A DNA stretch of 63,964 nucleotides, filler included, from Stramenopiles sp. TOSAG23-6 (taxonomy: Eukaryota): the NCBI GenBank assembly GCA_900128565.1. It is 3 parts of 3 records of this genome, joined end to end, with 100 filler letters (N's around TTAATTAATTAA, not from the genome) between each part and the next. Parts side by side here need not be neighbours in the genome. Positions count along the whole stretch, not along the records: positions 1 to 22,317 come from LT636016.1; 2 more parts are not named here. One strand, 5' to 3'. Under the pieces are notes generated by a model that worked only from the letters and a program-made list of their open reading frames with translations, was not told the DNA's origin and did no database searches. A program made the position numbers and the translations under genes. This document shows positions 56 to 60,310 of this stretch, in pieces (positions within the stretch are counted from its first letter, which is position 1; each line of letters opens with the position of its first letter).

Positions 56-3000
56 TATAGTCACCTAAAGAACAAGCTCTATGGAATGCTGTTTCACCAA
101 GCACATCAGGTACAAATAAACAACCACCAAACTTGATAAATACTTGTATTAGTTTAATAGAACCAGTATTAACAGCAACATGCATAGATGTATATTTATT
201 TCGCATTTTTTTGCTTCTGTGATTGATGATAATTCCAGGTGAAATACCATAGAAACAACTCCGTTCATTTTTTTTGTTTTTTTCAAAAAATGATTCCAAT
301 TTTGATTTTATAAAAGGAAAATGATCATTATTTGTATCATTGTTTAAATTACATTTAATTGAATGTAATAACGATATTACTTCATCAGATAGACTTTGTT
401 TCATATTACTATAAGTCACACCTTTACAAAATTTATGAATGACATGCCATATGAAAAAATATTTCAAAAATTAAAATCGTTAGGTACGAAATTTCGTATG
501 AAAAAAAATAAATTAGAAATTCATATGAAACGTACATTGACAGCTTTAATTTGCTTTGCATATAATTTACAAATGTAGTGCCATTGGATTTGTCTTTGAA
601 TATTAAGATTTAAATAATAAAATGTATCAATATTATTTTCCACTAGTCCAATGCTTTTGTTATACCTGTATAAAGTAGTTATATTAGGTAATATACTCAA
701 CGGAATACGCATACTTTTCTGAACTAAATAACGTCTAACAACCTTTTGAATGAGTATAACTGCAAAGTATGCCGAATACAGAAATTTTGTTCTTGTTACT
801 GACATCTGAAAAAAGTCTATAATTCTTGAAACCATTTTGGAACATTCAACCTGAAACTTCTTTTTAGTATCCATGTGTAAGAAAAAAGAGGCACGGGAGA
901 TTATTCCTCTACAATGACTTTGTATTCTACTAATTAACAATGTCTTTTGAATTGTTTGTGTAATTATGCGTTTCGCACTGATTGTACCATCTTTAGGTTT
1001 TGCACTGATTGTTCCAGTTTTTTTAAAAAAATACAATGAAATTGCCCTTTTTAATATTGAAGTAGCTTTGTATTTCTTGGTCTTCATTAACATACTACGT
1101 TTAAATAAACATTGTTTCCATCTTGAAACAATAATCTTTGAAGCTATTATAATACCAAACAATGAAGATGAATGACTCAATGCACCATTTGCTCGCCACC
1201 AATTTACTATTACATTCAATGCTCTGCGTTTGTACCATTGGTCTATTCGAATTTGAAAGTCTGATTTTGCAAACAACATTGAATGACCCATCTTCCAATA
1301 CGTTTCGTGTCGACTATCATATTCATCATTACGTTTATTCGTCCCGCCATCAATTGCGGATACACAAAGGGAGTATATATTATTTCTAGCATTCAATACA
1401 TCATTTGTACACATCTCAGTGGATTCTGTAAAATATCTAGATGATATTGTATCTTTCCAAAATACATCATAATTTATTCGAAAAGGAAAACCATCTTTTC
1501 TCATTGCAACTACCTCCAAAATACCTGCATATAATAACTGTCTATACACTAACCTTTCATCATAATACACAAGACCATATACTGTGAAAAAATAGTTCAA
1601 ACGTTTGAAATTTGTTAGGTACAAAACTTTTAATAAAAATAAATAAATTTGAAATTGAAAAAAAATGAAATGAATGGTGAAAGTATACATCTATAGGTCT
1701 ATATTGTGATTCATTTGACTTGATACAATGCATATAGTGTGTGTGACTACGTTGAAGTGTACTCAAAACGCTCCCAAAATCGCTTGCATACTTTACTATT
1801 GCCGTAGTCCGATTATGAAGTTTTGTATCATTTTTTACATTTTTAGATGTGATATTTAATAGCTTGACTAAAAACTTATTATCAGACGAAGCACACAACT
1901 CAATAAGATTGTGAGTTAAACTATTTTCATTATACTGTAAAAATGTTTTCGAGTCATACATAACATCTCCAGCAAAATGAGAAATAGTAAATGTAGTCGT
2001 CGCTTTTTCATGTAATGTAGTCGTCGCTTCGTCATGTAATGTACCAGTTGACACAAAATTTCTCTTTAATTTTAAATACTTTGATGATTTGAGCTGTTTG
2101 CTATGTCGATTTCTACATGATTGACCTTGTGTCGTTTTGTGTGTATGAAAAAGGCTGGCACATATATCAACTCCATTTTTATTAGCATAACTTAAATCAT
2201 CCACCACCCGAAAAATACCATTGAATTCTGAATTCATCGTGTGTACTGTTTTATTATAATGTGTTTTGAACTGCATTTTACTTTCAAACGATTCACCATT
2301 AGTCTCTAAATCGTCATACATTTTACAATCTAATAAAGCACAACATGCATTGTTATCTTTGTAGATAATGTTACAATTGAACCCCTCCTTCTTATATAAA
2401 TTCATTTCTTCTTCAAATATTGCATCATTGTATAACTGGTACAACTTTTCATTGGCATAGTTTACACATAATGTATGTAATGAATTTTGGCTACTATCCT
2501 TATTATTTTGAAACCCTGATACATCTAAAACGCCAATAAAGTGATCTAATCTTGTACAACACGTCACAGCATTGCATACTTTGACTAACCAAGCAAATAG
2601 CTTGGCATAAATAAAACGAACTAATTTCCCCGCATTTTTTCTCAATAACAAAGAATCACTAGAGTGAATGGTAGTTTCACCATGTAATAATTGCAAATGT
2701 AAACTCTGTAAACAATTTGCTAAATTCTCACGAAAGCCTAAAATATTTGAAATATCTCTCAATACATGTTGAAACTCTAATTCATCATCCCAGACCTTCT
2801 CAATACATATACGACGTAGTTGAATACATGCACCTATTATTTTCCATAATTCGTCTTGTTCAGTTTTTGATACTCCAAGTATAGACAATATTGACGTTGC
2901 TTTACTTTTGATATTTTGTTCATTTTTCTCACTTTTATAATTCTTAGAATATTTTTCTTGTTTTAAATTCAAATGTTTTTCATTTTCAATGAGTTCTTGC

Positions 3001-9870: not shown

Positions 9871-10951
9871 ATGACAACTGCAGCTATTGATTTTGTCCAT
9901 AGTCCTTCAATAATTGAAGTAGGGAAACAATTTTATCTATCGTATCAACCTCTGCGTGATGCTAGTGGATCTACAAGTAGTGCTTATATTGGTATATTTT
10001 CCCCAAACGAATCTGAAAACGAATTAAAAGCACGAAGATTTTATAAAGACGATATAGAATATCCAGAAAAGAAGGATTTACTTTGGGCATCAAATTATGT
10101 TCCAACAAAACCAGGTGTGTATGAATTTCGATACTATAGAAAACACACTTTGTTAGGTAAAAGTCCCGTTACAGTTGTTGCTAGAGGTCATGGGCCACAT
10201 CAGTCAACAGAGAGATATCCTTACTCTCAACGGGGAAATTCCACTTCATATAAAGTCACTATTTGTTCAAAGCACTCTCAAAGCTCATATTGGCCTGAGT
10301 ATCTCCCCATAGACAAAACACGATTTCTCATAATTGAAAGAAGCAAAAATGCTTCAGTTGTCGTGTATGATAGCAGTCCAATTCAAAATAATATCGTAAA
10401 TACTACAACTAAACATCCTACTGCCAGGATACGGTGGTGTTCATGGGGCTGGACGGCTGAGCCCGAGTATAATAAGTTGAATTATATCCAAAATCAAATT
10501 GCTTATGGTCTGACCCTAACAAAGTCATTACAATGCCCTTCAAAATCCCACAATACGTCTGTCGATAACAAAAACGACTGTCCGGATGAAACTGATGTTG
10601 TTGCATCATATATTGTAAAGATGGTTGCAGTTCCAGAAATGGAAGCTAGATTAGAAATCTTGAGGGATGTATTTTTTTTTTTTTTTTTCAATTTCAAATT
10701 TATTTTTCGTACGAAATTTTGTACCTAACGATTTTTTTTTTTTTTTTTAATATTTTTTCAAAATACATGGGACTTCAATTTTAGTATGTCTGGTAGATTG
10801 TGGTGAAATTATTTTACATAAACTATTCATTTGCACTAAAGAAAGATTTCTTAATCCTATACCAAAAGTTGTTTATGTTGATTTATATGGAGAAATTCGT
10901 GCAACAAGGAAATCAATAGTTTGGAGATATAAAAAAACAAAAGAAAAATAA
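9871..10951 (+). CDS. DUF4833-like protein with N-terminal SKICH-like segment
   Basis: IIERSKNASVVVYD, LNYIQNQIAYG, PKVVYVDLYG. Inferred exons 9871-10668 and 10769-10951. Confidence 0.7.
10669..10768 (+). mobile_element. Introner-like intron GT..CAT
   Basis: GAT|GTATTT..AAAATACAT|GGG; next AG leads to a stop. Confidence 0.85.
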
Positions 10952-12218: not shown

Positions 12219-15200
12219 ATGGCGGCCTATCGGCCTTGGTTAGTATACATACGTGTTTTAATTATATATTGTTTTATTAGTTGTAATGGCTTTGTTGGAG
12301 GTTTTTTTAGTGATAGAAAGCAAGAACCTATGAAAAATGTCAAGAAACATGACGAAAATAGCTTCACTGTCGACGGTAATGATGGAACTGACTTGCATGT
12401 CAGTGATACTACGACTCAAAATGATGCATTCGATTCAACACCTAATATGAACTCACGGGAAATATTAACTTTGCATGGTGCACCAGAGCAACATGAACAT
12501 ACCTATGATGATATGGATAAAATTCGCAAAGAGAAAAGAATTCAACGTCTCCGTCGTCGACTCACTACAACTGATTTCCTAGGAAGACGCGCAGATGACT
12601 TTTATGATTATGCAACAGCATCATCACATGCTACCTGGATTAGTGATACACGCAATGATAAAACTGGACAAGATTTGATTACAGCAAGTTCTTATTTGCG
12701 CTGTAAAGCAACCCATAGATGTCCTTGGGCAAGAGTTGAATATGATGTGCAAGGAATGAAATACGAATTCACCAAAAAGGCTTTCAACACAGGTCGTTGG
12801 GATTCTATACCTCTATTTACTGATTTTGAAGATTGGTATGCCGGTACACACGGATGGCTTCATTCACCGGATGTTTTGGCTGCACCAACAATGAGCACTG
12901 TGATTCATGACCATGACTCTTTAAAAACAACACAGAAATGGCGTAGTTCTCAACAACCCTCAATTTCACGAGGTTTAAACCCAAACGATTTCGTTTCTTC
13001 CGGAAAGTTACTTGTAAACACTAAAGTAACAATGCATTTTGTGACATCTGGTGCAATACCGACTCTAACAATTGGTACTACTGTTTTCAATGGAGTAGTC
13101 GCTACGACTACATCAAGTACAAAGGTTGCGTTGTTTAATTTCGATTCCATTTCTATATCAAAACAAGTCTCAATAACAGCCGAGGGAAATCGTGCTTTAG
13201 TCATTAGTAGTAAAAGCACAATTATATTTGATACTACATTTACTATATTACCTGGTACACTTGGCGGTTTTCCAGGTACTGATGGAAGTCCATCAATCAA
13301 TAATGTAACAGGTCCTGGTAGCGGATCTATACGTCTATATTTACATACAATTACAACATCTGCTGATGATATCGATGAAGTTCAGATAATTACTACTTCT
13401 GCAGATTCTGGGCAAAATTTAGGTGGTACGTTTACACTCACTTTATCATATTGTGAACGAAGTCGTAGTGAGGGAGAGGGTGGGGATAGCCATGATCTAG
13501 ATAAAAATACTGAATCAAATGATGCAAAGTCAACAGATGGCTTATTTTTACCAGGTACCATTGTATATGATGCAAAAACTAAAGAATCGTGTACAGTACT
13601 GAATAAAAATGAAAGTGATGCTTACAAATGGATATCAAAAACTACACAAAAAATATCTCATGATTCTTCTGCACTTCTTGTATCGAAATATTTAGGTGAT
13701 CTCAGTATAATCTCTTCTAAAGTACGTGTTGGTCGGTATGTTTTATTATTTTCAATTTCGAATTAAATGTTTTTTTCATACGAAATTTCATACCTAACGA
13801 ACTAAAAAAAATATATTTTTTCACAATACAGTAATATTTCTGACCAACAAGGTGGTCATGTTTGGCGAGTTACATTTGTTGATGCTGTTGGAGATGTGCC
13901 TCAGATACAACCTACTTCATATTTAACTGGTATTGGTGCAAAAATTGAAACAGATACCTATGAGGAGGGTAATAATATTGGAGGTTCCTTTAGTATTGAT
14001 TTTTTACAGGGTACTACAAGATCTTTACCATATGATGTATCTGCCGAAGCAATGGCTACTGCACTAATGGAAGATATTGAACTCGTTAAACATGCACGTG
14101 TTTCTAGACTAGATCCGTATACGTTGCAAATGTGTAGTGTTAGTAGTAGTAGATGCCAAGGGGGTGGACCAATGCCTAGTTATGGCTATAAATGGTCAAT
14201 TACGACGACTACGACGTCGAATAATATTTCTCCAACGTCACCTACATCATCTAATATTGGAGAAAAGGGACAAAAACAAGTAATGACGATAAAAGATAGT
14301 GGAACTTCATTGACAGGTATTGGAGTTAGTATAAAAGTGGACGAAGGACATACTTTACATAATTCGGCCTCATTACATTCATTTTCAACATTTTACCCTG
14401 GGGATGGTTCAAATGAAAAACATTTCTCTTTGGCATTTGGCGGTTCTGGGGGTAGTTATGGTGGTCTTGGTGGAAAAGGGCATTCTCACATTGATGTTGG
14501 TCCAATGTATGGAGACGTTCAAGTGCCAGACATTTTTGGTGGGTCGTCTGGAACAGTCGGAGGTATTCATCCTAGAGAAGTAATATCTGCTTTTTCATCG
14601 GCAACAGATAATCCTACGGGTGTAGGTGGTGATGGTGGTGGCGCTATAGCTTTTGTCGCAGTAAATGACATTATATTTGATGTCAATACAAATATTGAAG
14701 TTAATGGAAAAGAAGGGGGATTTGGGTACCGAGGTGGAGGCGGGGGTAGCGGAGGTACTATCATTATAGAAGCTGGTGGTAGTATACGCCAACATGGAAG
14801 ACTATCAGCTAAAGGAGGTGATGGTGGTGGTTCAGTATTAAGTTCAACTGGTGCAATGGCTGGTGGTGGTGGTGGAGGAGGAAGAATCTTTATAAAATCT
14901 CAGACATTGGATACAAAAAATGATAATAATATCGAAATTGGTGCTACTATTGTAGATGGAGGGAAAGGTGGTGAAATAGGTGATTCAAGTTGTAGAGGAA
15001 TAGCTACGGGAGTATGCACAGGAGGTGATGGAAATTCTTGCCTTGCAGTAGATGGGTGTGTATGGAGTGGACATGTATCTAGCCATTGCAGTGGCGCAGC
15101 TGTTGCAACAAATGCATGTGATGGTATAAACATTACTACATGTGAAAATGTTGTTGGTTGTAGTTGGATTTCTACTGCAGGATCATGTAGTGATTCATCA

Positions 15201-18200: not shown

Positions 18201-19415
18201 TTTGGTTTAAATTACCACCGAGCTTTTTATCATCCTGAGTATGATGACTATCATGATACATATGTCCAACGTTGGCGCCAGGAGAATATTTTGTGGAAGG
18301 TAAACTGGAGATTTCAAAATAATACGATTGATTGGGTTGAATCCTCACTTGGTGATAACATACGCAAATTTGTAAAATGTGATCCAAAACCAAATCAGCC
18401 TACAACAGGTGAAGATAAAGGTTGTGGGCCTGGTACCGGGATATTAATGGAAGTCTTTGAGACGAGACAAGCATTGGTTAATATCCGACAAAAGTTAAAT
18501 AAGGGTACAATTACTATACAAATAGACGGTATAAAATTACAAGTCACCGCTGGTTCAATCTTCACAGCTTTACAAGACACATGTTGTTGTGTTAGTAATT
18601 TTACTGTGGAATGTTCCGATGGCTTCCAACGTCGGTGTTGCCGTTGTTGTTGGATATTTGATATGTTGAGAGTTCATCATATTGATATATTAGAAATCAT
18701 TCGACAAGGTTTGATAAAAAATGATCAAGATAATTCTTTAAAAATAGATTTTAAGGATTATGGTAGAAAAATCCCATCTCCGGAAGGTTTCACATATGCC
18801 TTGGACCTTAGGAAGGAGTTACTAGGACAAGGTTCGGTTGATTCTGGTCAGGTAGAAAGTAAATTTTTCGATCCCGGATACTCTGATAATAATGCATGGA
18901 AAGCGAACTCTGTTCCAGCAGTAAAGTCACAAACCTGGCAAGAAAACTATTTGGATGGAAATATTGCAGATAATCCACCACACAGTACAAAGCCAGATAA
19001 ATTAATTGGACCAACTAGGGTAGTTGAATGGCGTCGCACAAAGTATGTGGCAGTGAGTAAAATGACTTCAGATTATTTAGGTTTAACATCGGAATTGCGA
19101 ACATATGAAGGGGATTTAACCAATAATGATGATATGAGTAATATATTTACGCCCAAAGGACAATTTAATTTTGATACTGATGCGACAGATAGGGTACCTG
19201 GTTCGTCACATAGTGAAGGTGGCGACTCTTTGGAATTAGGACCTGGGAAAACTCAAACAACTCAACCATTACGTGTCTATGGTGATATGAGCCCATTTAA
19301 TTTTAGTCCTGCTTCAGATTGGTATTCAAGATTTCATCAATATAGAACTGAAGTGAATGATCGACGAAATGATCCGGTCAACTTTAGTAATGAAAACACC
19401 GCTGCGCAATCCTAA
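12219..19415 (+). CDS. Very large secreted protein with Gly-rich and Cys-rich repeats and a GH43-like beta-propeller domain
   Basis: Hydrophobic N-terminus; GGGGSGG repeats; Cys-rich repeats; YWYGE..STTDFIHWENEG..PKVLYNPTTKKYVMW..GPF..KDQT..AYL. Exons 12219-13735 and 13832-19415. Confidence 0.8.
13736..13831 (+). mobile_element. Introner-like intron GT..CAG (canonical member)
   Basis: CG|GTATGT..AATACAG|T in frame. Confidence 0.9.
15450..15845 (+). repeat. Tandem duplication (about 213 bp period) of a Cys-rich coding unit
   Basis: PTIVxCNDKSMQSDxGKCSATGNCHDTTGNLLPSITTSSSCTSPNIWTASWTHNRQTGCTF occurs twice. Confidence 0.9.
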
Positions 19416-21601: not shown

Positions 21602-23141
21602 TTATTGTAAATTAAAGTTCTTAATACCTTCCCGCAGAGGCGAAAGAGCGCGGGCGTGAGCATTGCGTCTGACGATATTCATTTGCTCGTGTACCAACAT
21701 TGGGGTGGTATTTGACAAATTCGAAATGGAATCCGTACCAAATTTCGCACTTAACGAATTTCGAATTTGCTGATGATTGTTACCCCTGTGTACAAGTATT
21801 TTATTTTTATGACATTCGAGGCCTTCACTGTAGCTGCTAAAATGGTTTTGTGTATTTTTTGCATTTTGAATTGAACTTGATGCATGTATTGATGGATCAA
21901 AAACAGTCTTACTATTTTGGATGTTAAAGGCATATCGTGGTGGCGTTTGATGTATTTTGGAAAAATATTTCAAAAAAAAATTTAATTTTTGTTAGGTACA
22001 AAATTTTCAAAAAAAAAAAAAATTTCGATAAAAAATTGAAAAAAAATAAAACATACAAGAAATTTGCTTACTTGAAATTTTGTAAGCATGTTGGTAATTT
22101 GAGGGATAGTTGGATGATAGCCTTTTCGAAGTAGAAGCTTTATCCATGATGTTGATGATTTCCTCAATGCATTGTCAAACGTTTTTTGTGTCACATTCTG
22201 TATTGAGGTCAAATCTGCGAGTTGTTTGGCACATGGTAGACAATGCCTATTTATCAGTTGTCCATGTATTTTGGAAAAATATTTCAAAAAATCTAAAAAA
22301 AATTGTTAGGTACAAAANNNNNNNNNNNNNNNNNNNNNNNNNNNNNNNNNNNNNNNNNNNNTTAATTAATTAANNNNNNNNNNNNNNNNNNNNNNNNNNN
22401 NNNNNNNNNNNNNNNNNCAAAATTTCGTACGAAAAATAAATTCGAAATTGAAAAAAAAATAAAACATACATATAGAGTTGTTGTAGCATTCTCATTCAAT
22501 ATGGGATTAGGACCATTGATAGAACCTATCCTCCAGGCTTGGGATATACCACCACCTATATGATCTAGAAGTATCTCACTTTTTATATATAAATTCTTCA
22601 GGCTATAAGTAATATCAGAGTCAAAGTCTACATTTATCTTATTACGACAAACCGTAGGTAAATGCCAATATGGAGATAAACGACTCGGGTTTTCTTTTAC
22701 CCAATGGAAATGTTTTGGTAACAATTCTGCTGTTTTGATAGAATAATACAACTCAGAAGGGCATGCTTCTCTTTCAGAACTGTACCACTTATAAAGACCA
22801 AGACGGAAATGTGAACTTAAAACAAGAGAATCAGGGTCTTCTGCCTGGGCAATAGATTGAGAGTGTGCCTCCTCGATACACCACTTCCGATGCTTAGATT
22901 GATATTTTGATTCACACAATTCAGAACAATAAAATGCGAGACCACACTGATTACAACATAAAGCTCTATTGATATCTAATTCTACAAGACAACTACAGCA
23001 AACTACTCTCTGAGGGTTCAGTTCAAAATTGTCCTGTTCAGCACGGGGCACCAGCAACTTTTCACTAGAATCAGCAATACAAAAGTATTCAAATAATGGG
23101 GTAAGCCAAGGTAAGTCTAGTATATGCTTTTCGCCCGACAT
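21602..23141 (-). CDS. MYND-type zinc-finger protein (spans an assembly gap)
   Basis: CCSC..CNQC..FYCSELC..HRKWC. Inferred exons 23141-22470, 22263-22057, 21949-21602. Confidence 0.6.
21950..22056 (-). mobile_element. Introner-like intron GT..CAT
   Basis: CTT|GTATGT..AAAATACAT|CAA. Confidence 0.75.
22264..22469 (-). mobile_element. Introner-like intron GT..CAT interrupted by gap
   Basis: TAT|GTATGT..(N)..AAAATACAT|GGA; both sides are phase 0. Confidence 0.7.
22318..22417. other. Artificial gap linker N44-TTAATTAATTAA-N44
   Basis: Six-frame stop linker between N runs; both flanks are intron-family sequence. Confidence 0.95.
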
Positions 23142-23525: not shown

Positions 23526-26464
23526 ATGTCAGGTATTCGTAAATTTCGTAGAGTTATTCGTAATATTAAAGGTCCTTTACGTCGACGGCGACGTGCTCTA
23601 TTTGGTCGAAAACCCCACAAAGATCTACATTCAAATACGACTGACATGGAGGAGAAATCCAACAATGATGTGATTGCTGACGAAATCATCCCTCTTAAGT
23701 GTTCATATAATCGTCTTTATCTTCTTTTTTTGAATCAAATTGAGAGTATAAAAAATATTACCACGTCGGCACAGTTATTGAATGTATCAAAACAAGAAAG
23801 TAACCCTATTTTGATTCAAGGTGTAGTGAAGTTTCCGCTATCATATCCCGTATGTTCCGTAAGTGAAAACCAAAGTAAACTTTTGGCTACCGCCAAGCGA
23901 GGAGAGGTAATCTCCTTCCAAATACCACTCGAAATATCTGTTGATTTATGTTTTGAAGCTAAAGCTGTTGTCGAATATATNAATGAAAGTGGTCGTCCTT
24001 ATTCTCAGATGTTATTTGGGAAAACTTTCATTTCCAATATATTGCAGTTGTCACAAGGAGAGAAATTATTCATAGATATGATAGATAGGACTGTAGGTTT
24101 TCGTTATGAATTTCAAATTTATTTTTTTTTTGGTACGAAATTTTATACCTAAACAAAAACAAATTCTTGAGTATTGACTACGTTTTCATCATGAATTTCA
24201 AATTTGTTCTTCAAATGTATTGTTCATGGTTTTGTATTTTTGTCTTTTTTTGTCATATTAGGCGTTTTTGTATTTTTGTCTATTTTTGTAACTTACCTAA
24301 AAGAATTTCAAACTTTTAAAAAAAAAATTTCACCATAAATGTTTTTTCTTTTTTTTTTCAAAATTATTTTTTTTTACATTTTTTTTTCGTACGAAATTTT
24401 GTACCTAACGAATATTTTTTACAAAAACAAAAATATTTTTTACTATACAAAAAAATGAAATGGAAAATACAAATATTGATAATTTACCTGTTTGTAAAAA
24501 TATTTGTATTACTATGATAACTCAACCATCAAAATGTGTACTACATTCAATAAATTCAGTCGTNTCAAAAAATAATTTGAGAAAANAGGAGAANTCAAAA
24601 TTGTTTTTTTCAATATTCGAGTATTTTGTTGTTCTTNTTGTGCTTATAGCAAATGTAGTCATGTTTAATATAGTAAGCTCTGATTCACATGCATTGAAAA
24701 TAGTATGTGGATTAATTATTTCGTGTGTGATTATTACTATTATTTGTGCTTACACCAAAAAGAAAAAAAATAGCCATAGTCATAATCATTCTGAAAACAA
24801 ATTGCATGTTTCCCCAGGTACTAGGAAAAGTTTTATTTTTTTTTAATAGAAATTTTGTACCTAACAAATTTTGAAATTTCTTTTGAAATATTTTTCCAAA
24901 ATACATGCCTGCTATTCATACTTCATATAGTGGTACAAACGATGGTAATTGTCTAGATAATATGAATTTTTCATATACTGAAATGGTGGTTGCTCTATCG
25001 CTTCATAGTGACAAGACCCATATTTTTGGTACAAATAATACTACAAATAATAAAATAGATAATGCAGATTGGTTGCCTTCGTTACTTGAAACTTCTGCGG
25101 AAATTACTCCTGACGAAACTACCAAATTAAAAATTATAAGAAAATCTATACTAAAAGAATTTTGTAGTTTACCTGTAGTGAATAATGATACATCTAATGC
25201 AATTTTACCAGTAGTGAATGATGATACATCTAATACAATCTCAAATTTGTCAAGTGATCCTTCTCTGTCTTCAAGAAATCAATTAGANGGTACTAATAGT
25301 AGGTTTATTAATAAAACTATTCAAAACAAGTCATATGATATGCATTGGCAAATTCATCATTTGGATANTTATACGGTAGATGAATTTTCAAAANGTATCG
25401 CTCAAAAGTGTGGGGTGATACCAAAAATGCTTCAANACAATAATAGTAGTAAAGGAGATGATAATTATAAATATCCTAAAAATTGGCGATTGACGTGTGA
25501 TTGTCCTCAAAGACAAATGAATGTAGCAAAATATCAAGATTGCTGGAATACTTGGAAACAATGCCGCTGGCCTTTTGTACACGAAATCGCTGGAAATGGA
25601 AAGCGTGGTGATCAGCGTCTTGTTGCATTTTTACGTGCACGNAATGGGGATGTTGATAAAACGATTAAAATGGTATTCGATTCCATTCGATGGCGTCAAA
25701 AGTTTGATTTGAGTAGAGTTAGACGAATGAANCAACCCNCTTATGTATGGAAACCTTCAATTTCTCTTGAAAAATGGATGCTTCCATTACCTATATTTAC
25801 TTCATTAGATGTTGAGGGTCATGTTTTATTTTATAGTAATTATGGAAAATTAGATGTAAATGGATTTCTGAATAAATGCTTGCATTCAAGTGAGGAGGAA
25901 TTAGAAAAAATATTTGTGTTTATTCTTGAAACTTTTCAATCGGCTGCCATGAAGAGATGCGCTATGAGTGATGGCAAAATATTACCACAAATTTCGTTAC
26001 TTGTTGATCTCAGGGACTTTGGCTTTCACTCCGTNATTCCTCTNGGAATTATTAAAAGATTATTAGATTCTTTTCAGAAAAATTATCCGGAACTTCTAGC
26101 AAGAGTTATTGTAGTCAATGCACCTTGGCTATTTGCTAATTTATGGAAAGTTATTCGAAAATTTCTTGATGAAAGAGTGCGACAAAAAATCATTATATCA
26201 AATAATACCGGTTTGACTCTTTTTGAGGAGGTTTCCGCATGGATACATCCAAGATTCATCCCTAAATTTATTTTCGAGAAACATATTGATACACTTGAAA
26301 AACATAAATGTAATTGGCTGAAAAATGTAGGCGAAGGACTCAANACTTTACAACTTGCACAAGGAGGTAAAATACCAAAATGTGATACCACACGTTTTGA
26401 TGCAGAGAATGAATATGCNAGTAGTCATATAAATAATGATACAATNTCATGTGCGAAATTATAA
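23526..26464 (+). CDS. CRAL-TRIO/Sec14 domain protein; 5' exon structure uncertain and may be more than one gene
   Basis: LVAFLRAxNGDVDK..RWRQ, LLVDLRDFG, FQKNYPELLARVIVVNAPWLFANLWKVIRKFLDERVRQKI. Probable exons 23526-24092, 24451-about 24810, 24907-26464. Region contains many Ns. Confidence 0.7.
24093..24450 (+). mobile_element. Composite region with at least two intron-family cores
   Basis: ACT|GTAGGT donor, cores near 24133 and 24387, probable end TATACAA. Confidence 0.5.
24808..24906 (+). mobile_element. Introner-like intron ending CAT, donor uncertain
   Basis: Clear GTACCTAAC..CCAAAATACAT 3' half; no phase-compatible GT in the tracked upstream frame. Confidence 0.5.
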
Positions 26465-27223: not shown

Positions 27224-27552
27224 AAATTGTTATCTATTGTATCAATGGATTGAGTGTCGAACGGTTAATAATAATATTTCCAGTGACAAGGAATAAGATC
27301 TGCAATAGTACGTAGTAAAGAGGATTCGTTGTTGTACACACAGTATTTTAAAAATTTTAGGCTGTTTCAAAAATCTTTAGACCTTTTTGTGTAACTGCTA
27401 GTTGAACTGCCACAAGTCAAAAGACTAACTTCTCTCTACGCCGTCTACGGTATCACAACTGAGTCTTCACACTACATTCTCCCAAGGCAATGCTCGGGTT
27501 AAATATTAGAGATTAGCATAAATAACTTCCATTGATTGTATGACAATCTAAT

Positions 27553-33829: not shown

Positions 33830-35956
33830 TCAACTACGAGGAAATGTAGCAGCATGGCCTGCCTTTGCAGCTTTCAAAAAGTTTTGCAATTTATTCAATC
33901 TATCATCAATTTCTGCAATTTCTAAGGAAGTATCAATTGCGCCTTTTGTTTTTGGAGAGACTTCGGGTGAAATTTTCTTCATCATATCTGGATAATTCAT
34001 GGGTATTTCAATGGTCGTTTGACCGAATTCTCTATCTTGACAATTTTTCACTAATCTGTTATTTTCTTTATCATTATGATGTAAAACTTCATCATACTGT
34101 TCATTCGTTTTCATTGTAGGACTATCACATTTCTCATTATGTTGAGACTGCATCGAAACAGAATTTAATATCTCATTATTTTGAGACTGCATCGAAACAG
34201 AATTCAATAAATCCAAGGCAGATGAATTTTGAAGTTGTTCCTGAGTAGAATCCCTTGTAGTCAATTCGACCGAACCTTTTTTATTGTTTTGACTAATTTG
34301 TCTTTTTTTTTCTTTTATTTGTTTGTTGGATTTGTTGGACATCCGGCTTCTACTTCTGCTTCTAATAGAAGATCCTCTCATAATTTCCTCCTCACGAAAT
34401 TTTCGTTCTCGTGACTGGCGAAGTTTAGACTTTCGATTAGCAACAAAAGCAGTTGGGTCAAATCGAGGTATAGGACTTTGTGATCTCATCGATTTCGAAC
34501 GACTTCTTGTTCGAGATTTATCTTTACGGCGAATGATGTATTTTGGAAAAATATTTGAAAAAAAAAATCGTCAGGTACAAAATTTCGTACGAAACAAAAA
34601 ACGAATTTGAAAAAAAATTAAAACATACATGCTCCGACTGCGACTTCTTTGTGTTAATTTATTTTTTTTTGCAGAACCAATTTTTTCTCGTGTTCTACTA
34701 CTACTAGTGCTTCTAGTAAATCGTCCAGTGCGTGAAGCTATACTACTGTTTAAATTTGCATTTCGTGTTGCTGATCGCCCGCGAGATCTTTCTTTTCCTT
34801 TCGCATTATCAGAATACATTTTATTTCGTGTTGCTGATCGCCCGCGGGATCTTTCTTTTCCTTTCGCATTATCAGAATACATTTTATTATTGTAACGTTT
34901 TTTTCTTAACAACGGACGAGGTGTAGTTGTTGGGGTATAATTTTTAGTAGTATGAGAGTCTATATGAACTAGGCTTCTACTTGTACTTCGGTTTCGATAT
35001 CTTACTAAACTTCCCTTGGGATCAGGGTTAGTTTTATTTGTGCTTCGATTTACCTTACTTTTTTGACAGCGATTGAAAACTTTTGAGTTATTTCTTTGTT
35101 TGAATTTTCGTCTTGTGCCATTTACTGTGTTACTATCCTTATTCATATCTTCTATACGCTGTAATAGCTCACTGTTTCTTTTTTTCAATTCTTCAATTTG
35201 TCCTTTGGCTTCGCATTTATTTTTGTTTACTTGAGTTTTATATACCTTAAATTCTTCTCTCTCACTTTGAATAGTGCGAGACAAATGCAGAAGGTCAGTT
35301 TGAACAGCTGAAAGTCTTTCAGATAAAGACACATTTGCTGCTTTTAATTCCATTTCACGAGCGTGAGCAATCTCAATTATTTTAGAAGTACTGTCAGATT
35401 CGTTATTATCAGTTTCTATTCTTGACTTACCCAAAGATGCTCGCAAAGCACTCAATTCCTTTCGCAGAGAAGCTACCGTGCAACGCAATATTGTTTCTAT
35501 TGAGTCTTTACATGGAAGCAGAGGGAGAGGCCAATGTATACGATCAAACTCTACGTTGTATGTAAGAACTAAATATCGTTTTTCCCGAAGCACCTCTGCG
35601 TTAGCAGGTATTGGGCGGCTACCTCCGTTATTTTTCATCCGCATTTCTTGTAAATCATCAAATGTTAATAAATCAATCCATACACTACTACTACTGCTCT
35701 TCTGCGCAGCACTTAACATTCTCACGAATACTGAAAATTTTTTGAAGTTGCGTGTCTGTCGTGTTAGTTGTTCAATCTGAGTGGCTGAAAATTCCCCACG
35801 CCAACGTAACGCGTTCACCTTTTGTACAACTTCTATAGTTAAAAGGTCATCTATGGCTGAAACTATCATTGTGTAATCCTCACACTTTCCATTATGTTGG
35901 AACGTAACATCCATCTGCTGTAAAGGTAGGAGATCCTTCATCTCCTCCATAGCCAT
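33830..35956 (-). CDS. CCDC61: CCDC61/VFL3 centrosomal protein
   Basis: WRGEFSATQIEQLTRQTRNFKKFSVF, DLLTFDDL, KRYLVLTYNVEFDRIHWPLPL, RFDPTAFV, EIDDRLNKLQNFL. Exons 35956-34629 and 34535-33830. Confidence 0.9.
34536..34628 (-). mobile_element. Introner-like intron GT..CAT
   Basis: CAT|GTATGT..TACCTGAC..AAAATACAT|C joins the CCDC61 frames. Confidence 0.85.
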
Positions 35957-39778: not shown

Positions 39779-41647
39779 TTATTTCTTTTCCCTATCTCTT
39801 GTCTCTCTTTGGAGTTTTTCGCGATTGAGAACTAGGAGTCGAGTTTTTCTATTTTTTTCTCTTTCTTCACGTTGTTTTCGTCTAGCCATCTTCATTTTGT
39901 GTGATTTATATCTTGCTGCTTTCATACGTATTTTTGCTTGTTGTAGTTGTTGAAAATTGTATTTACCATGAGGATTTTCTAAAATAACTTTCACCTCATC
40001 CCAAGATTTTGGTGTTAGATCGTACTTTGGATTCTGCGTATCTTTGAAGTCAGATTTTTCTGCAACACTACATAGTGCAAGAAACATTTTTTTGGTGGAT
40101 GGAATGGGCTGCCCAGGTATCCTTACTTTTTTTTGACATTTTTGAAGGGTCAGTGGTTCAAAAACTAAAGTATGTAAAGTGCGAACACGAAGACTTTCAG
40201 CATGTATTGTGAAATATATTTTATTTTTTGTTAGGTACGAAATTCAGTACGAAAAAAAAAATAAATTCGAAATTGAAAAAAATAAAACATACATGTAACC
40301 ATTTCGGTAGTGTGTCTGAGTTTTCAACTGTTTTCTTCATATTTTGCTTCGATTTCACAGCGTCCGCAAGACGGATTTCAAGTAATGCTTTTTTTCGGCG
40401 TCGTTTGACAGTAGCTAATTGTTTTCTATTCCATCCGGGCCAATCAATGGTAAAACTACTATCAGACATATCAGGATCGAAGTATTTATGTTGGAGATCA
40501 TATGTTGGCACAGTTTGGACTACAGGTCCAGTGTATTNAAATCCACAAGATTTGATTGTATCAACAGCTCGATTGATATCTTTCATGTTAAACGACTTTA
40601 TCATAAAGTCGTATGAATTATTACCTATATTTAACTCACTACAATTTGTTTTTTGTATTTCTGGAATATTTGGTGAATTCACATCACAATTAGTTGCCAT
40701 ACGCGCTTTTGCTGCAGCTGCTAATGCGTGTGCCGGATACAAAGGAACTAACCGAACATCTGGGATATTTTTTTTTGCTACTAAACACAACAGCCTTTTG
40801 ATTTCCCATAGAGGGGGAGAAGATTGTCCTGGAACTCGTAGTCTTTCTTGAAGTTGTGGCAATGTGCGAGGTGCAAGAGCTAATTCATGAATCAGTCGAC
40901 ATTGGAGTGACGCTCGGTGATGTGCAGTTTGAGAAAATTTATCAAGTGCACTTGTTGTGGACTTGACTTCATCTATTTTTTTATATTGTTGATCTTGTCT
41001 AAGTTTTCCCCCAGGATGAATGACTGAATAATATCGAGGAAGTGGAGGTGTCACAGTGTCTTCCGTCTGTCCATGTATGTCGGAGAAATATGTCACATAA
41101 TTGTTTTTCGTTAGGTACGAAATTTGGTATAAAATGTTTTTTTGAAATTCATCATAAAACATACAGAATATACACTTCGGTGTAAATCAAAGCGGTTGTT
41201 ATTTCTATTACGTCGAGATTTTTTTTTTTTAGATCTATCGGCTAGTTTTGATGTATATCTATTATTTAATTGGATTGGTTCGAGTCGTCCACGCATACTT
41301 GGGATAAAAGCCACATTGCACTCTTCTTTGCTTTCATTCAAATAATTGCGAATATATCGGCTATTGTTCGTTGAAGAGGTTCGTAGCATTGTTTGATATA
41401 TATAGTACTTTGCTGCATTCTCAAGCTTATTACTAGATTTCTCACGATTCCTTATTGCATTTATTCTACAACTTAGATCATATTGTCTTGGAGAGAGAGT
41501 TGGTGACCCTGAAAAACCTGGTACCAAAGGTCGGTTGCCACTTTTCAAAAGGACAGGTGGCATTGTATGTAGAGTTTGTTCTTGATACCTTCCTACAAGC
41601 CTGTTGCGAACACGATTGGATTTCATGAGTTGTTTTTTTTTTCTCAT
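39779..41647 (-). CDS. Protein with two ELL-like winged-helix repeats
   Basis: SLQCRLIHELALAP..LRVPGQ..VAKK..YDL..DWPGW, repeated as SLRVRTLHTLVFEP..VRIPGQ..VAEK..YDL. Exons 41647-41165, 41072-40293, 40201-39779. Confidence 0.65.
40202..40292 (-). mobile_element. Introner-like intron GT..CAT
   Basis: CAT|GTATGT..AATACAT|GCT; next AG is out of frame. Confidence 0.85.
41073..41164 (-). mobile_element. Introner-like intron GT..CAT (in-frame CAG 6 nt further is possible)
   Basis: TCT|GTATGT..CATACAT|GGA. Confidence 0.75.
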
Positions 41648-44549: not shown

Positions 44550-44641
44550 GTACTTATTTTTTTTTTCAAATTCGATTTTTTTTTTGTACGAAATTTTGTA
44601 CCTAACAAATTTTAGTTTTTTTTTTTTGAAATATTTTTCCA
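44550..44641 (+). mobile_element. Introner-like intron, 3' end lost in gap
   Basis: TAT|GTACTT followed by family core. Confidence 0.7.
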
Positions 44642-44741: not shown

Positions 44742-44842
44742 AAAAAATATTTAAAAAAAAATCTAAAAAAAATCGTTAGGTACAAAATTTCGTACAAAAA
44801 AAAAATCAAAAAAAAAAATCAAAAAAAAAAATCAAAACGTAC
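44742..44842 (-). mobile_element. Introner-like intron, 3' end lost in gap
   Basis: AAT|GTACGT followed by family core. Confidence 0.7.
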
Positions 44843-46491
44843 ATTTTTTCTTCATTTGCTTTATTTACTTTATTTATAGACCGTACTGAAACCTGAGACA
44901 TTTGGAGTTTTAATTTATTCATATTTTTATCTAATTGTTCAGCATGGATTGTGAAAAAATATTTCAAAAAAAAAAAAAAAATTTGTTAGGTACAAAATTT
45001 TTATAAAAAAAAAACTCGAATTTAAAAAAAAAAAAAAAATTTGTTAGGTACAAAATTTCGTACGAAAAAAAAACTCGATTTTTTTGTAAAAAAAATAAAA
45101 TATACATGTTTCTCTGCTATTTGGCGTTTTTTTAGTTCATCTGTCATGGCAACACACGATTTTGCACGAAATCCAGCTTCATCCATTTGTTCATCTTCTA
45201 ATTGAGCACATGTCTAGTGAAAAAAAAAAAAGTAGTCAAAATTTGTTAGGCACGGAATTTGCAAAAAAAAAAAAAAATTTCAAAAATTAAATTTGAAATT
45301 CAATTTTCAAAAAAAAAAAAAAAAATTTCAAAAATTAAATTTGAAATTCAATTTTGAAAACGTACGTAGAGCTAACACTGTCTGTTCGGCTTTGGCTCTG
45401 GCTGTAGTCTCTGCAATGACTGCAGCACCAACAGATTTAAGTTGTTGTCGTAGTGAAATTGTTGCTGTTTCAATAGCAGCTGCGATAATTTCTTGAGAAT
45501 GTTGAGATGTTTGAGATGTTTGAGATTTTATTGTAGGTACAAAATTTGGTACAAAATCATCTGAATTTTTATTTTCACCATTACATTTTTTCTTAACCGA
45601 ATTATTTTGAATATTATTTTGAATATTATTTTGAATATTATTTTGAATATTATTTTGAATATTTGAAATAGGGTTAGGGTTAATATTTGAAATAGTAGAA
45701 GATGCTGTTGTTGTAGTAGGGTTAGGGTTAGGGTTAGGTTTGTTTACATCATCTTCTTCAATATTGACTGGAATTTCCTTTGTTGAAAAAATAGATGATT
45801 TCCAACTGTATTTACTCCATACACCGGAGAGACTCTTTGCACGAACACGAAATCGATACCGCGTTTTTGGCTGAAGAGATTTGACCACAACCCTACAACA
45901 TTGTTGAGAGTGAGTAATGTTCACATTCTCCAAATTATTCACATTCTCCAAATTATTCACATTTTCCAAATTGTTCACATTTTCCAAATTATTCACATTC
46001 TCCAAATTAGTATTTACTATGGATGTTTTTAATGCTGCTAATGTTTCCGGTGTTTCATTGCCGTTTAATTGTAAAAGTTTAGATACAGGTATAAAACTCA
46101 TGGACTCCGCAAGCAAAGCATCTACTTCAAACGTTTGCCAACTACCAAAAAATAATGTCGAATACTGAACTTCATAGGTTGAAATTTGAGTCTTGTTTTC
46201 TGCATGTTCGTTTTTTTTCTTTGATAATGTGGAAATACAATTCATTGGTATTGGCCATTCAACGACAAGTTGGTCAGGATAACTTTCAATAAGCACCGGT
46301 TGACCAGGTTCATTCGGTGGAATTTCTGAAATATTTTCAATGGGAGGTTGATTAGATACTATATTGAACGTATCACCGTCAGACTTGACGATGGGTACAG
46401 TTGTTTTTATAGTACTCATCTGGTTTTCTGTATATTTTGTACCTTCCTTTTCCAACAAACTGTTATCACTGTGTTTAGAAGATGTACTCAT
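44843..46491 (-). CDS. Fibronectin type III domain + coiled-coil protein, truncated at gap
   Basis: PPNEPGQP..LVVEW..YEVQY..LQPKTRYRFRVRAKSLSGVWSKYS; NNLENV and IQNN tandem repeats. Exons 46491-45366, 45209-45106, 44943-44843. Confidence 0.75.
44944..45105 (-). mobile_element. Introner-like intron GT..CAT with duplicated core
   Basis: CAT|GTATAT..two TACCTAAC..AATCCAT|GCT. Confidence 0.8.
45210..45365 (-). mobile_element. Introner-like intron GT..CAT
   Basis: TAC|GTACGT..CTAGACAT|GT; TAG 4 nt upstream is out of frame. Confidence 0.8.
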
Positions 46492-46925: not shown

Positions 46926-49900
46926 ATGAACACAATGAAGCTTATGACGCTTATGATTCTGATTTCTTTCATAGGTCAAACCTTGGCGATGTTTGGGTTT
47001 TTCACTTCCGGCTCCAAGAAGAATTCCAAAACTCAAACTCAGGTTCCATATCTTGAGGAGGTGGATTCTTTTGTCTCTAAAACCACTGACAACTACTCCG
47101 AACATGCTGCTAGAACAGAAAAGGAAAGAGTCATTGATTACCTGAGTACCCCGCATCGTGATGTCGACCAAGACATCAAAAAATGGCCAGTGAATGATCT
47201 ATATTATAATGTACACAGTTTTTGTGGTCCTAAAGAAGACGAATGTGACAGAGACGACTCAAAACTTGACTACGAGGGCAGAGCTTGGCAAATGTTAAAT
47301 GGAGGGGATTCTGACGATGCTAAAGTGGGGAACGACGATGATATCACTATTAAGAATATTCCACGGGAACCATTACTCTCGAAAAACTTTACACCCAAAA
47401 TGTTACGTTTCGTTCAAGAAAAAGTAAAAGACGCATTTGGAAAAAAGGATTTGTCTGATTATGACTCTTCTCCTGTGCCTCCTGTGTATTACAAACCGTG
47501 GCAAATGTGGTTATATTATTTTGTTTATGCTGGTACCCTTAATGGTGTAGAGCCTGTTTCATATTCATTTGTTGATAATAATCTAGATAAGCTCAAGAAA
47601 CGTGAAGATGAAGTTACTTACATCTTGGAAAAGGTAGAAAAGGTATTGAAAGGTGAAACGGTTTTTGATGACACAGGTGCACCATTTACTACTATATTTA
47701 AAGATGAAGAGGTTATTGATGAAGCAACAAAAATAGGACTTACTGAACAAAACGTCTGGGCTTCTTTTGTTAGTCCAAATATACACGGAATCGCAAGTGA
47801 TGAGTTTGATAAATTCCGAGACCAAGATATATTTGAGGTTCAGGGTCAATTGGTTCCTGACATTATTCCTGACGTTGACTTTAGCCTAGACCAAGATATA
47901 GTTGCCGATGTTCAGGGTCAATTGGTTTCTAACAACTATATTATTCCTGACGTTGACAATAGCCGAGACCAAGATATAGTTGAGGTTCAGGGTCAATTGG
48001 TTTCTAACAACTATATTATTCCTGACGGTAAAATAATTCAAGGTCAAAAACTTGGCCCACTTGGTTATCAATTTGACGACCAAAATATTTTTTCGGCGCT
48101 TGAAGTAACCGAACTAATCGACGATGTTGCTCACGCGTCTCCACCTGATCAAGAAGAGAAATTCACTGGATTCAATGGTCCACTTATAATAGCAAAGACT
48201 GTAGTGGACCAAGGAGATGAAATCGGTAATGAAATTCTTCTGGAATTTAATCGAATTCTTTCAGGTTTTTCAGGTCTTTCAGCAGCCAACTCTGATGTAC
48301 CGGTTGTACCACTAGTATACTTGAATAACAAGTATTATATTAATTATGTTGTATTAAAAAAAGAGCTTCGAAAAGTAATTGACAAAATAATCGAACGTGA
48401 AACAATTAAACGCACAGTGAGTTACATCTTTGAAAGAAACAAAATGGAGCACATGGCATCACTTAAAGAGATATTCGATGTAGAAGCATGTATGCTTTAT
48501 TTTTTTTTCAATTTCGAATTTATTTTTTTCAAAAAAAAATTGTACCTAACGATTTTTGTTTTGAAATATTTTTCCAAAATACATTGGAAAAAGCCCAAAA
48601 AGCTAAAACTGATTTCGAGGAAGAAGCGAGAGCTGCACAACAGGAAGCATGTATGCTTTATTTTTTTTTCAATTTCGAATTTATTTTTTTCAAAAAAAAA
48701 TTGTACCTAACGATTTTTTGTTTTGAAATATTTCTCCAAAATACATTACTAAAAAACACTAGTACTCGTAAAGATTCAATACATGTACGTTTTATTTTTT
48801 TTTTTACAAAAAAATCGAATTTTTTTTTTATAGTAAATTTTATACCTAACATTTTTTTTTTTTTTTGAAATAATTTTCCAAAATACATGATGTAGCATCC
48901 TCCATAGCGGGAGATATCAGTAAAACCCTTTTTCGTCTTTTCAATTATAAAGAAACCAAAGACCAAAAACTAAATACTGTTGCTCTTCTTGTAGGTCATA
49001 TTGAGCATAAAATTAAAGAAATTGAACATTATGTAGTGGATTTATTGGATTTAGGGTATGCTTTTGATGCGGATAAAGTTTTGCGAGAGTTGATCAAAAA
49101 CATAATTTCCTACACGACTCACACCGCTTTTGACAACCATGTAGATTTTAAAAACCATGTTAAAAACAGGCTTATTGCTCTACTAACAAAGATGCCTATG
49201 TATGATCCATTAAATAGATATGCTACTGTTGAATACATGTATCTTTTTATTTTTTTTCAATTTTTTATCTACATTTTTTTATAGGAAATTTTGTACCTAA
49301 CAAAAACTTTTAGATTTTTTTTGAAATATTTTTCCAAAATACAAAAAGAGCCTCGATGATTTTTTTTTAACTGAACCTGATAGATATGATAATGTTGTAT
49401 ACATGTATCTTTTTATTTTTTTCAATTTTTTATCTACATTTTTTTATACGAAATTTTGTACCTAACGAAACATTTTAGATTTTTTTTGAAATATTTTTCC
49501 AAAATACATCCCCTGGCGCAAAATATTTGACCCTTTTTATCATAAAGGGGAAAAAAGGGAAGTAATTCATAAGAGACAATTTTTCTTTAAACATACGCAT
49601 AACATTGATGATGTACCCAATGCATGGAATTTTGCTGGAAGAATGGCAATTTATCAACATTTTCAAGTTTTTTTAAAGGAACAACTCATTTTCTTTAAAA
49701 ATGATTTCAAAAAAAAGGATTGGGATGCTCTCTGGTCTAAAAAAAAACCTAAAAAACCTAAAAAGCCTACAACAGATAAACAAAAATGGGAGATGTGGAT
49801 GGCTACTAGAATTCACAATGATTCACCATTACCAAACTTAATGAATGGCAGAAAACTAAAAAAAGAAGAATGGAAAAAGCTTTCAGGTAAAGAACGAAGA

Positions 49901-50608
49901 ATTTTGGTAGCAAAAGATTCGACATTATTAGAAAAGACTCATATACATGTGTGTTTTATTTTTCGTACGAAATTTTGTACCTAACGATTTTTTTTTATTT
50001 TTCAAAATTTCAAAATTTGTCTACATTTTTTTTTTTTGAAAATTTTGTACCTAACAAATTTTTTATAATTTTTTTGAAATATTTTTCCAAAATACACTTT
50101 CGAGGAGAAAAAGAGGACAGGAACAAAGATAATAAAACACAACAAAACATTATTGACTTGGCAACAAATGTTTCTATAAAATATATATATGTTTAATATA
50201 TTTTTTTTAAACAAAAAAATCGAATTTTTTTTTTTTTGGTAAAAAAAATTTTGTACCTAACAAATTTTTTATGATTTTTTTTTTTGAAATATTTTTCCAA
50301 AATATATGTTTGCAGGAAATGAATTTGCAAATGTTCCGCCAACTCATGAAAACCTACAACGACTGAAGGAATATATTGAAAAAAATCGAAGCATTGTGGC
50401 AGAGATTTGGGCTATTTCTAACCCTATTAAAAATGTTGGAGATGTATGTTTTAGTTTTTTTTTTTAAATTTTGAAATTGAATTTTTTTTTTCATACGAAA
50501 TTTTGTACCTAACAATTTTTTTAGATTTTTTTTTTCAAATATTTTTCCAAAATACATGTACCATACCAAAAACAAAAGTTGGATAAACGACGACAAAATG
50601 ATGAGTGA
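46926..50608 (+). CDS. Unknown secreted protein, about 930 aa, 8 introns
   Basis: Signal-peptide-like N-terminus. Open frame through exons 46926-48489, 48585-48650, 48747-48784, 48889-49238, 49345-49404, 49510-49948, 50098-50186, 50308-50443, 50558-50608. Confidence 0.7.
48490..48584 (+). mobile_element. Introner-like intron GT..CAT
   Basis: CAT|GTATGC..AAAATACAT|TG. Confidence 0.85.
48651..48746 (+). mobile_element. Introner-like intron GT..CAT (near-identical to previous)
   Basis: CAT|GTATGC..AAAATACAT|TA. Confidence 0.85.
48785..48888 (+). mobile_element. Introner-like intron GT..CAT
   Basis: CAT|GTACGT..AAAATACAT|GAT. Confidence 0.85.
49239..49344 (+). mobile_element. Introner-like intron GT..CAA (in-frame AG at 49350 is possible)
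   Basis: CAT|GTATCT..AAAATACAA|A. Confidence 0.7.
49405..49509 (+). mobile_element. Introner-like intron GT..CAT (near-identical to previous)
   Basis: CAT|GTATCT..AAAATACAT|C. Confidence 0.85.
49949..50097 (+). mobile_element. Introner-like intron GT..CAC with duplicated core
   Basis: CAT|GTGTGT..AAAATACAC|TTT. Confidence 0.75.
50187..50307 (+). mobile_element. Introner-like intron, AT..TAT by alignment (alternative 50191-50305 GT..TAT)
   Basis: ATATGTTT aligns with GTATGTTT; both models restore frame. Confidence 0.6.
50444..50557 (+). mobile_element. Introner-like intron GT..CAT
   Basis: GAT|GTATGT..AAAATACAT|GTA. Confidence 0.8.

Positions 50609-60263: not shown

Positions 60264-60310
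<47 letters not shown>

Follow-up and report, generated by a model that had tools for sequence, protein, structure and literature searches.

Bursts of intron gain are at present best explained by introners. In Micromonas and other algae it is established that there are introners whose target duplication supplies a splice site (PMC11282704 and the Gozashti 2022 preprint, in the passages on these algae). The introner elements of Micromonas pusilla form thousands of short similar introns in unrelated genes and are described in the same part of PMC11282704 as resembling miniature inverted-repeat transposable elements (MITEs), with short terminal inverted repeats (TIRs) and a short target-site duplication (TSD). 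The intron family reported here is like them in the first respect, and the element that we propose behind it is like them in the second. A 2025 survey of introners, as its selection criteria are worded, worked with the 3' splice sites AG and AC, and families with unfamiliar sites were discarded unless RNA data supported them (PMC12130899); by these criteria a GT..AT family in an unannotated genome would be missed. Here we describe a family of this type in Stramenopiles sp. TOSAG23-6 (assembly GCA_900128565.1). The window analysed is a stretch of 63,964 nucleotides made of three parts of three records, the first being LT636016.1, joined end to end with 100 filler letters between parts. The copy at 10667-10768, in a gene of the DUF4833 family, is taken as the reference for all others.

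A preliminary description had presented this copy as AT/GTATTTT...AAAATAC/AT, and direct readout confirms it. Positions 10667-10675 (ATGTATTTT) and 10760-10768 (AAAATACAT), 9 nt each, are exact reverse complements, and the locus has the layout GGGAT/GTATTTTT(T-run)...CGTACGAAATTTTGTACCTAAC...(T-run)...TTCAAAATAC-AT/GGG, where the slash marks the exon-intron boundaries. The frame that runs through 9871..10668 closes a few codons inside the element, and a second frame leads from 10769 to a stop codon ending at 10951. Excision of the 100 nt between them (10669..10768) unites both DUF4833 frames, and the proteins P0001 and P0002 (35-39% identical) align to both exons. In the length range that was searched, a set of 5.8 billion proteins yielded no relatives of the host protein beyond these two. 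The canonical AG at 10783-10784 was tried as the end of this intron and rejected, because the exon frames would not join. Frames and homologs together show, as far as sequence can, that 10669-10768 is a spliceosomal-type intron of the DUF4833 gene. It is 84% identical to the family consensus, and its closest relative is the intron 57321..57420 (86%).

The family model, a profile built from 19 clear copies which match it by construction, finds 62 matches with E<=1 in the window, 46 of them with E<1e-3. All 46 strong matches lie in the sense orientation of the local gene and none is antisense. For 41 introns the boundaries were fixed by coordinates; two of these have no 3' end, which was lost in assembly gaps, leaving 39 ends in this curated set. 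Thirty-two copies were aligned (alignment A1). Copies are about 90-160 nt long and show the same order of parts: GTATGTTTT, a T-run, CAATTTCGAATTT or its variant ACAAAAAAATCGAATTT, GTACGAAATTTTGTAC, CTAAC, a second T-run, and GAAATATTTTTCCAAAATAC-AT. They have in common that they start with GTATGT, contain a palindromic core, the branch-like CTAAC and a T tract, and end in CCAAAATAC. CTAAC would serve as the branch site, judged by the general CTRAY/TACTAAC consensus. The palindrome of the 16-nt core is perfect in its C variant; the commoner T variant pairs only as sense-strand RNA, with one G-U pair. This core is matched exactly by 24 copies, and with up to three mismatches it is found 55 times, where 2.5 are expected and none of 100 shuffles gives more than 6; one example of the recurring motif lies at 34570-34595. 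A two-part pattern with 30 specified bases has eight exact copies in the window where none is expected.

Identity between copies in different genes has a median of 70% and reaches 88-90%. The alignments show that the likeness goes beyond splice signals and spans the full intron length, with sub-variants, and that the most conserved parts in A1 are the donor, the branch-like motif and the 3' end. The latter pattern would also suit old, immobile introns that are alike through the strict splice signals of an intron-poor genome, as in Ostreococcus, or through gene conversion. We consider this origin very improbable. The stretches between the signals are similar too, over the whole ~100 nt and with shared sub-families; the exact cores and exact two-part patterns are too numerous for it, as is an identity of up to 90% between copies of unrelated genes, and some introns carry two or three cores. 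Sequence is shared over most of the intron length among unrelated genes (46 matches, A1, identities up to 90%), and the similarity stops at the intron-exon boundaries, as the frame test in 35 of 39 introns, the THO1 junctions discussed below and the DUF4833 homologs indicate. By these sequence characters it is an introner family, with introns of the GT..AT type. No intron without the family core was seen in the window, including around the MIP-like and asparaginase-like genes, so the family appears to supply every recognisable intron there. Two pairs of neighbouring introns are nearly identical together with their exon edges, namely 48490..48584 with 48651..48746 (97.9%) and 49239..49344 with 49405..49509 (94%). 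Such pairs point to tandem duplication of exon and intron within one gene, and so are not independent insertions.

If these elements are introns, at which bases do they end? Donors in the curated set are GT in 39 of 41 cases and GC in the other two. The last two bases are AT in 34 of 39 introns, AG in three, AA in one and AC in one, so the family departs from the canonical GT-AG pattern. With these boundaries the longest upstream and downstream open reading frames (ORFs) are linked in frame in 35 of 39 introns (chance one third; p 3.4e-13), whereas a 3' boundary shifted by one or two bases is in frame in only 3/39 and 1/39. Two earlier proposals, that the acceptor is AT and that excision of the element with one AT restores the reading frame, are thus borne out by the same counts. 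Most AT-ended introns (28/34) have no in-frame AG within 12 nt. The six which have one (at 41164, 45365, 48490, 55149, 59229 and 63202) are the number given by chance, and for these an AG end is conceivable. The intron 59229..59328, with GC at its start and GC before its final AT, was considered as a case of compensatory change and dropped, since an AG in frame 3 nt before this AT could make it an ordinary GC..AG intron. Four introns are exceptions to the frame test. For two of them, 48651 and 53027, short exons or homology give an explanation; the other two are taken up below. As AG, AA and AC occur at this place as well as AT, the last intron base seems, from these ends, to be loosely read.

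Individual genes support these boundaries. The AT end of the myosin intron 1577..1688 unites ORFs of 783 and 351 codons, and the AG that lies 5 nt before it is not in frame. Exon 1 of this gene can be aligned with myosins of solved structure as far as the loop that precedes the junction, exon 2 alone has no match in PDB, and the frame is the only support for the junction. In a protein atlas the matches were confined to generic myosin clusters. In the THO1 gene, the homolog P0003 (51% identical) aligns without gaps across the introns 52422..52599, 53027..53132 and 53467..53600. The exon upstream of 53027..53132 ends in GA and not in AT, and the split codon A/AT corresponds to Asn-407 of P0003; together with the gap-free alignment this makes the boundaries unambiguously GT..AT. 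The nearest named THO1 homologs belong to the oomycete Aphanomyces (31-39% identity), a weak hint of stramenopile affinity. A search for transcript-derived proteins with the exon 49511-49948 gave no match in the set of 5.8 billion proteins.

Moving both boundaries two bases to the left would turn the family into AT..AC introns of the minor (U12-type) spliceosome. The mRNA would be identical for the 29 AT-flanked copies, AC stands at positions -4 and -3 in 25 of 39 introns, and ACCTAAC in the core loosely resembles the U12 branch consensus. For the 12 introns without an exonic AT, however, the shifted reading gives starts of TT, CT, AC, AG, CA, GA, TG or CG, while all 12 keep GT or GC at the unshifted place, and so it fails. 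U12 introns have the donor ATATCCTT or GTATCCTT and the branch site TCCTTAAC at 10-20 nt from the 3' end. The family has neither: its 5' end is GTATGT, and the branch-like CTAAC lies ~40-50 nt from the end. In addition, the terminal AT (34/39) is better kept than AC (25/39), and 53027..53132 is confirmed as GT..AT by P0003. The minor-spliceosome reading therefore has a very slim chance.

Still less credit can be given to the idea that the elements are not removed from RNA at all, being either cut from DNA like the internal eliminated sequences of ciliates or never removed. A 2-bp direct repeat, short inverted ends and one repeat left behind do recall the TA-bounded eliminated sequences of Paramecium. 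Against this, every copy has the full set of spliceosomal signals, and has it only on the sense strand; the three standard stop codons all act as stops; and AG stands at the same place in three copies.

The second feature of the family is the AT before the intron. Of 41 introns, 29 have AT as the last two bases of the exon before them, compared with 9.5% in the background of ORFs of at least 150 aa and 11.4% directly before GT (binomial p 5e-21 and 8e-19), and these counts show an enrichment of AT over the window background. An earlier count of about 30 in 49 donors was about right. The neighbouring positions are also biased: C at -3 in 19/41 (background 17%), A at -4 in 24/41 (34%) and G as the first downstream exon base in 20/39 (19%). 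Read as the site before insertion, these flanks give a palindromic target, (A)C-AT-G(T). AT-flanked copies are slightly nearer to the consensus than the others (0.80 vs 0.75, one-sided p 0.063), which is expected if the exonic AT decays and the intronic AT is held by splicing.

All this can be arranged into one scheme. The family may have spread, moving as DNA, as a small non-autonomous element with short inverted ends (GTAT(G)TTTT / AAAATAC), carrying the donor, the putative branch site CTAAC and the T tract. It would insert at AT, preferably inside C-AT-G, and duplicate it, and the downstream copy of AT would become the final two intron bases. Splicing would then take out the element with one AT and restore the original message. 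The spliceosome would have to accept introns that end in A plus T, and occasionally in A plus one of the other three bases. One duplication event would account for the AT on both sides and for the inverted ends. We regard such an element, inserting at AT with duplication and spliced as GT..AT, as the most economical reading of the sequence, and give it an even chance. That AT is a transposon target duplication is unproven; the case for it is built from consensus features in one 64-kb window.

A number of observations weigh against this scheme. In this field a target duplication is recognised by a match within a locus and not between loci (Gozashti et al. 2022 preprint, where the test is set out). 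Here the ratio of within-locus to random-pair matches is 1.00-1.02 at AT and 0.83-1.16 at the other positions (12 positions); the AT match is global and not locus-specific, and no variable position matches. Among seven AT- or AG-ended introns of A1 without exonic AT, six still end in AT, so the two sides do not co-vary. MITEs are expected in both orientations and outside genes, but in this one window 0/46 copies are antisense and at most three strong copies lie outside ORFs and curated introns, in ~15% of its length (~9.6 kb). Insertion of DNA at random would leave antisense and intergenic copies. Two well-preserved copies, 50444..50557 and 56367..56474, need a 3' boundary at +1 or -2 (-2 meaning an end at AC), which could reflect assembly error, use of AC or a broken gene. 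The family could also not be traced elsewhere: the 16-nt core was met in at least 117 metagenome and 35 viral-contig stretches, with a single match in each, and the family model found nothing beyond the seeded core at these 152 loci, which marks them as chance matches. The two-part pattern has no match in prokaryote genome contigs and none in viral contigs.

The inverted ends count on both sides of the balance. In favour of the scheme, at each of nine pairs the ends are complementary in 20-29 of 32 copies. Against it, the consensus ends GTAT(G)TTTT / AAAATAC extend over only ~9 nt with a 1-nt bulge, and the left one overlaps the donor consensus. Covariation between the ends does not exceed that in shuffles (42/500 reach the observed percentage of pairing), and pair counts in the core hairpin show no covariation above shuffles either. 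The reference copy folds no better than shuffled sequences as RNA (z -0.55), and the same is true of its DNA fold. A Pfam scan of 30 ORFs of the window found no transposase domain, in agreement with the preliminary description, which saw none, and no autonomous partner with the same ends and a transposase is present among these ORFs.

The same family with the same GT..AT splicing could have spread with no target duplication, the exonic AT being a preferred context and the terminal AT belonging to the element itself. The excised intron might be reverse-spliced into transcripts at CAT/G and then copied to DNA, or be inserted directly in some other way. The usual exon context around introns is CAG/G, from which the flanks CAT/G differ by a single base. 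Copies are found in genes and in the sense orientation, never antisense, the match ratio gives no locus-specific duplication, and the 3' AT persists where the exonic AT is missing. Introner families do not always carry the marks of transposition, TSDs being reported in 49 of 130 and TIRs in 72 of 177 of them (Gozashti 2022 preprint, in the part that tabulates these marks). However, this route needs two coincidences, namely that exon and intron close with the same AT and that the two ends of the intron are complementary; and the weak fading of the exonic AT in diverged copies (p 0.063) suggests that it is not maintained by selection. The sense-only genic pattern would fit an RNA-level route, but also selection against unspliceable antisense copies in a compact genome. 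With a preference for CAT/G as insertion site, spread at the RNA level would account for most of the observations that the duplication scheme explains. We consider the duplication-free spread possible and clearly less probable than the spread by target duplication. The earlier proposal of an inverted-end element that duplicates AT thus stands in part: AT is found on both sides and the ends are complementary, but the match between the two sides is global and not locus-specific.

Degenerate or partial copies outside clear coding frames were seen at 24093-24430, 5' of the CRAL-TRIO gene, and at 37317-37367, between the NUDIX and MIP genes. They could be introns of untranslated regions, or else the sole intergenic remnants of the family.

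A bolder form of the preferred reading, spread by insertion with AT duplication, is that one small transposon wrote nearly all introns and that the AT duplication switched the 3' splice-site code from AG to AT. We put this forward tentatively, as somewhat less probable than the insertion reading itself. If true, it would be a natural case of a mobile element that forces or exploits a re-specified major spliceosome. Nearly all introns of a genome could then receive a non-canonical acceptor through target duplication, and the reading of the last base by the major spliceosome could be relaxed in nature with the donor staying canonical. In this organism and its relatives, most genes with several exons would be annotated wrongly by standard gene finders. 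Whether introners move as DNA or via RNA is a question for which the family is a clean test case.

The coordinates of the reference locus and of the other introns of the family are collected in Table 1.

Table 1. Features of the reference locus and other family introns in the window; the slash marks the exon-intron boundary
Feature	Position	Strand	Support
Exon 1 of DUF4833 host gene, ends ...GAT, phase 0	9871..10668	+	Pfam PF16117, E 1.2e-05; P0001 and P0002 align
Exonic AT directly 5' of reference intron, proposed upstream copy of target duplication	10667..10668	+	
Reference intron, 100 nt, GT..AT	10669..10768	+	Frame test; family-model match E 6.8e-19
5' end GTATTTT (family consensus GTATGTTTT), donor site and left inverted end	10669..10675	+	
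Near-palindromic core GTACGAAATTTTGTAC	10709..10724	+	Predicted 6-bp RNA hairpin, one G-U pair
CTAAC, branch-point-like, 39 nt 5' of intron end	10725..10729	+	Invariant or near-invariant columns of A1
Conserved 3' segment AAAATAC-AT, acceptor AT as final two bases	10749..10768	+	
Exon 2 of DUF4833 gene, up to stop codon	10769..10951	+	tblastn of P0001 and P0002
Myosin-gene intron, AT/GT..AT	444..535	-	
Myosin-gene intron, AT end in frame	1577..1688	-	
CG/GT..AG, AG where other copies have AT	13736..13831	+	
TT/GT..AT, no exonic AT	21950..22056	-	
Family intron interrupted by assembly gap	22264..22469	-	
GC donor, TT/GC..AT	24804..24906	+	
AT/GT..AT	34536..34628	-	
AT/GT..AT	40202..40292	-	
CT/GT..AT	41073..41164	-	
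Family intron, 3' end lost in assembly gap	44550..44641	+	
Family intron, 3' end lost in assembly gap	44742..44842	-	
Family intron, core doubled	44944..45105	-	
Diverged, AC/GT..AT	45210..45365	-	
Family intron, local duplicate partner of 48651..48746	48490..48584	+	
Family intron, local duplicate of 48490..48584	48651..48746	+	
Family intron, 90% identical to 61347..61448 of another gene	48785..48888	+	
Ends AA (..ATACAA), in frame	49239..49344	+	
AT/GT..AT	49405..49509	+	
Core doubled, ends AC (..ATACAC), in frame	49949..50097	+	
Boundaries less certain (GTTTAA..ATAT)	50191..50305	+	
Most consensus-like copy (93%); frames want 3' boundary +1 or -2	50444..50557	+	
THO1 intron, three cores, GT..AG	52422..52599	+	Gap-free junction with P0003
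Diverged THO1 intron, TT/GT..AT	52706..52846	+	
THO1 intron, GA/GT..AT/AT	53027..53132	+	Unambiguous via P0003
Diverged THO1 intron, CA/GT..TATAT; 53331 also in frame	53216..53382	+	3' end by homology
THO1 intron, AT/GT..AT	53467..53600	+	Gap-free junction with P0003
AT/GT..AT	55149..55264	+	
Family intron; frames want 3' boundary +1 or -2	56367..56474	+	
Family intron containing two N	56579..56680	+	
AT/GT..AAAT	56876..56989	+	
AC/GTAGG..AT	57321..57420	+	
GC donor; in-frame AG 3 nt before AT end, GC..AG possible	59229..59328	+	
AG/GT..GTAT	60247..60365	+	
AT/GT..AT	60525..60641	+	
AT/GT..AT	60767..60878	+	
AT/GT..AT	61347..61448	+	
AT/GT..AT	62208..62353	-	
TG/GT..AT; in-frame AG 3 nt downstream	63100..63202	-	
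Diverged; 3' end uncertain, as AT (63293) and AG (63275) are both in frame	63293..63381	-	
Diverged, AT/GT..AG; AG in frame, nearby AT not	63482..63629	-	

The window is AT-rich (24-42% G+C) and has long open frames under the standard code. Its genes are ordinary for a eukaryote and code for myosin, a protein kinase, a RING/RAWUL protein, THO1, ankyrin, CRAL-TRIO, EMC7, thioredoxin and NUDIX proteins. No Rfam family was found in the window or in the reference copy, and no tRNAs were found in the window. A head-to-head pair of short, divergent MIP (aquaporin-like) genes stands at 38016-38585 (-) and 38911-39483 (+), and each covers only about positions 52-150 of the 222-position Pfam model.

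The introns are unevenly distributed along the window: about 31 of 41 lie in the last 19 kb (44500-63964) and 10 in the first 44 kb. The densest example is eight introns within 2.1 kb at 48.4-50.6 kb. This clustering could reflect local hopping, expression level or gene age. Two very long exons on the plus strand are free of introns. One, at 13833-19415, codes for 1860 aa with glycine-rich and cysteine-rich repeats and no Pfam match; the other, at 27544-33714, codes for 2056 aa with six WW domains, IQ motifs and a B-box. In the genes that adjoin both of them, introns follow one another at intervals of 40-440 nt.

Many single Ns are scattered over 23981-57898. The two long gaps, 22318-22417 and 44642-44741, each consist of two 44-N runs around the 12-nt linker TTAATTAATTAA. 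Both gaps are inside family copies, which suggests that the assembly breaks at the family repeat.

How does this family compare with described systems? In the literature searched, supplementary tables not covered, no introner family was found that combines the canonical donor GTATGT with AT as acceptor, and the main texts on single-cell genomes of uncultured marine protists, in the portions consulted, contain no discussion of intron ends. In the Micromonas introners, as in the scheme proposed here, the element brings one splice site, the TSD brings the other, and the message is restored; unlike them, with a 3-nt TSD and canonical AG in the account of PMC11282704, the present family would have a 2-nt AT duplication and has a non-canonical AT acceptor. 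The genome here is AT-rich, unlike that of Micromonas, and the sequences are unrelated. The Chrysochromulina sp. introner also resembles the proposed scheme in that the donor is inside the element and the acceptor comes from the duplicated target, but the example given by Gozashti et al. (2022) has a 4-bp TSD, no TIR and canonical sites, whereas the putative duplication here is an invariant AT whose match is not locus-specific.

The MITE-derived introns of Fritillaria borealis (Henriet et al. 2019, as summarised in PMC11282704) are of transposon origin, with TIR and TSD, as is proposed for the present family. Their 3' ends include AT (AG-AT and AG-AC introns), and they are removed by an adapted major spliceosome according to that summary. 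They differ in having a non-canonical AG 5' end and in being diverse, while the introns described here are dominated by one family and have the textbook donor GTATGT. The introners of Amoebophrya, which have non-canonical borders, and the nonconventional introns of euglenids, in the descriptions of PMC11282704, are also repeated, with TSD-like repeats and inverted ends that might join the ends; their borders are variable, and Amoebophrya apparently lacks U1, in contrast to the uniform GT..AT found here with no covariation of the ends. With the U12-type AT-AC introns the family shares AT and AC ends if it is read two bases to the left, and several 3' terminal bases are tolerated in both; the donor and the branch distance are unlike those of U12 introns, and introns that lack the exonic AT still keep GT. 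Set against these systems, and read from its sequence, this is a real introner family of an already known kind, with a very unusual AT acceptor.

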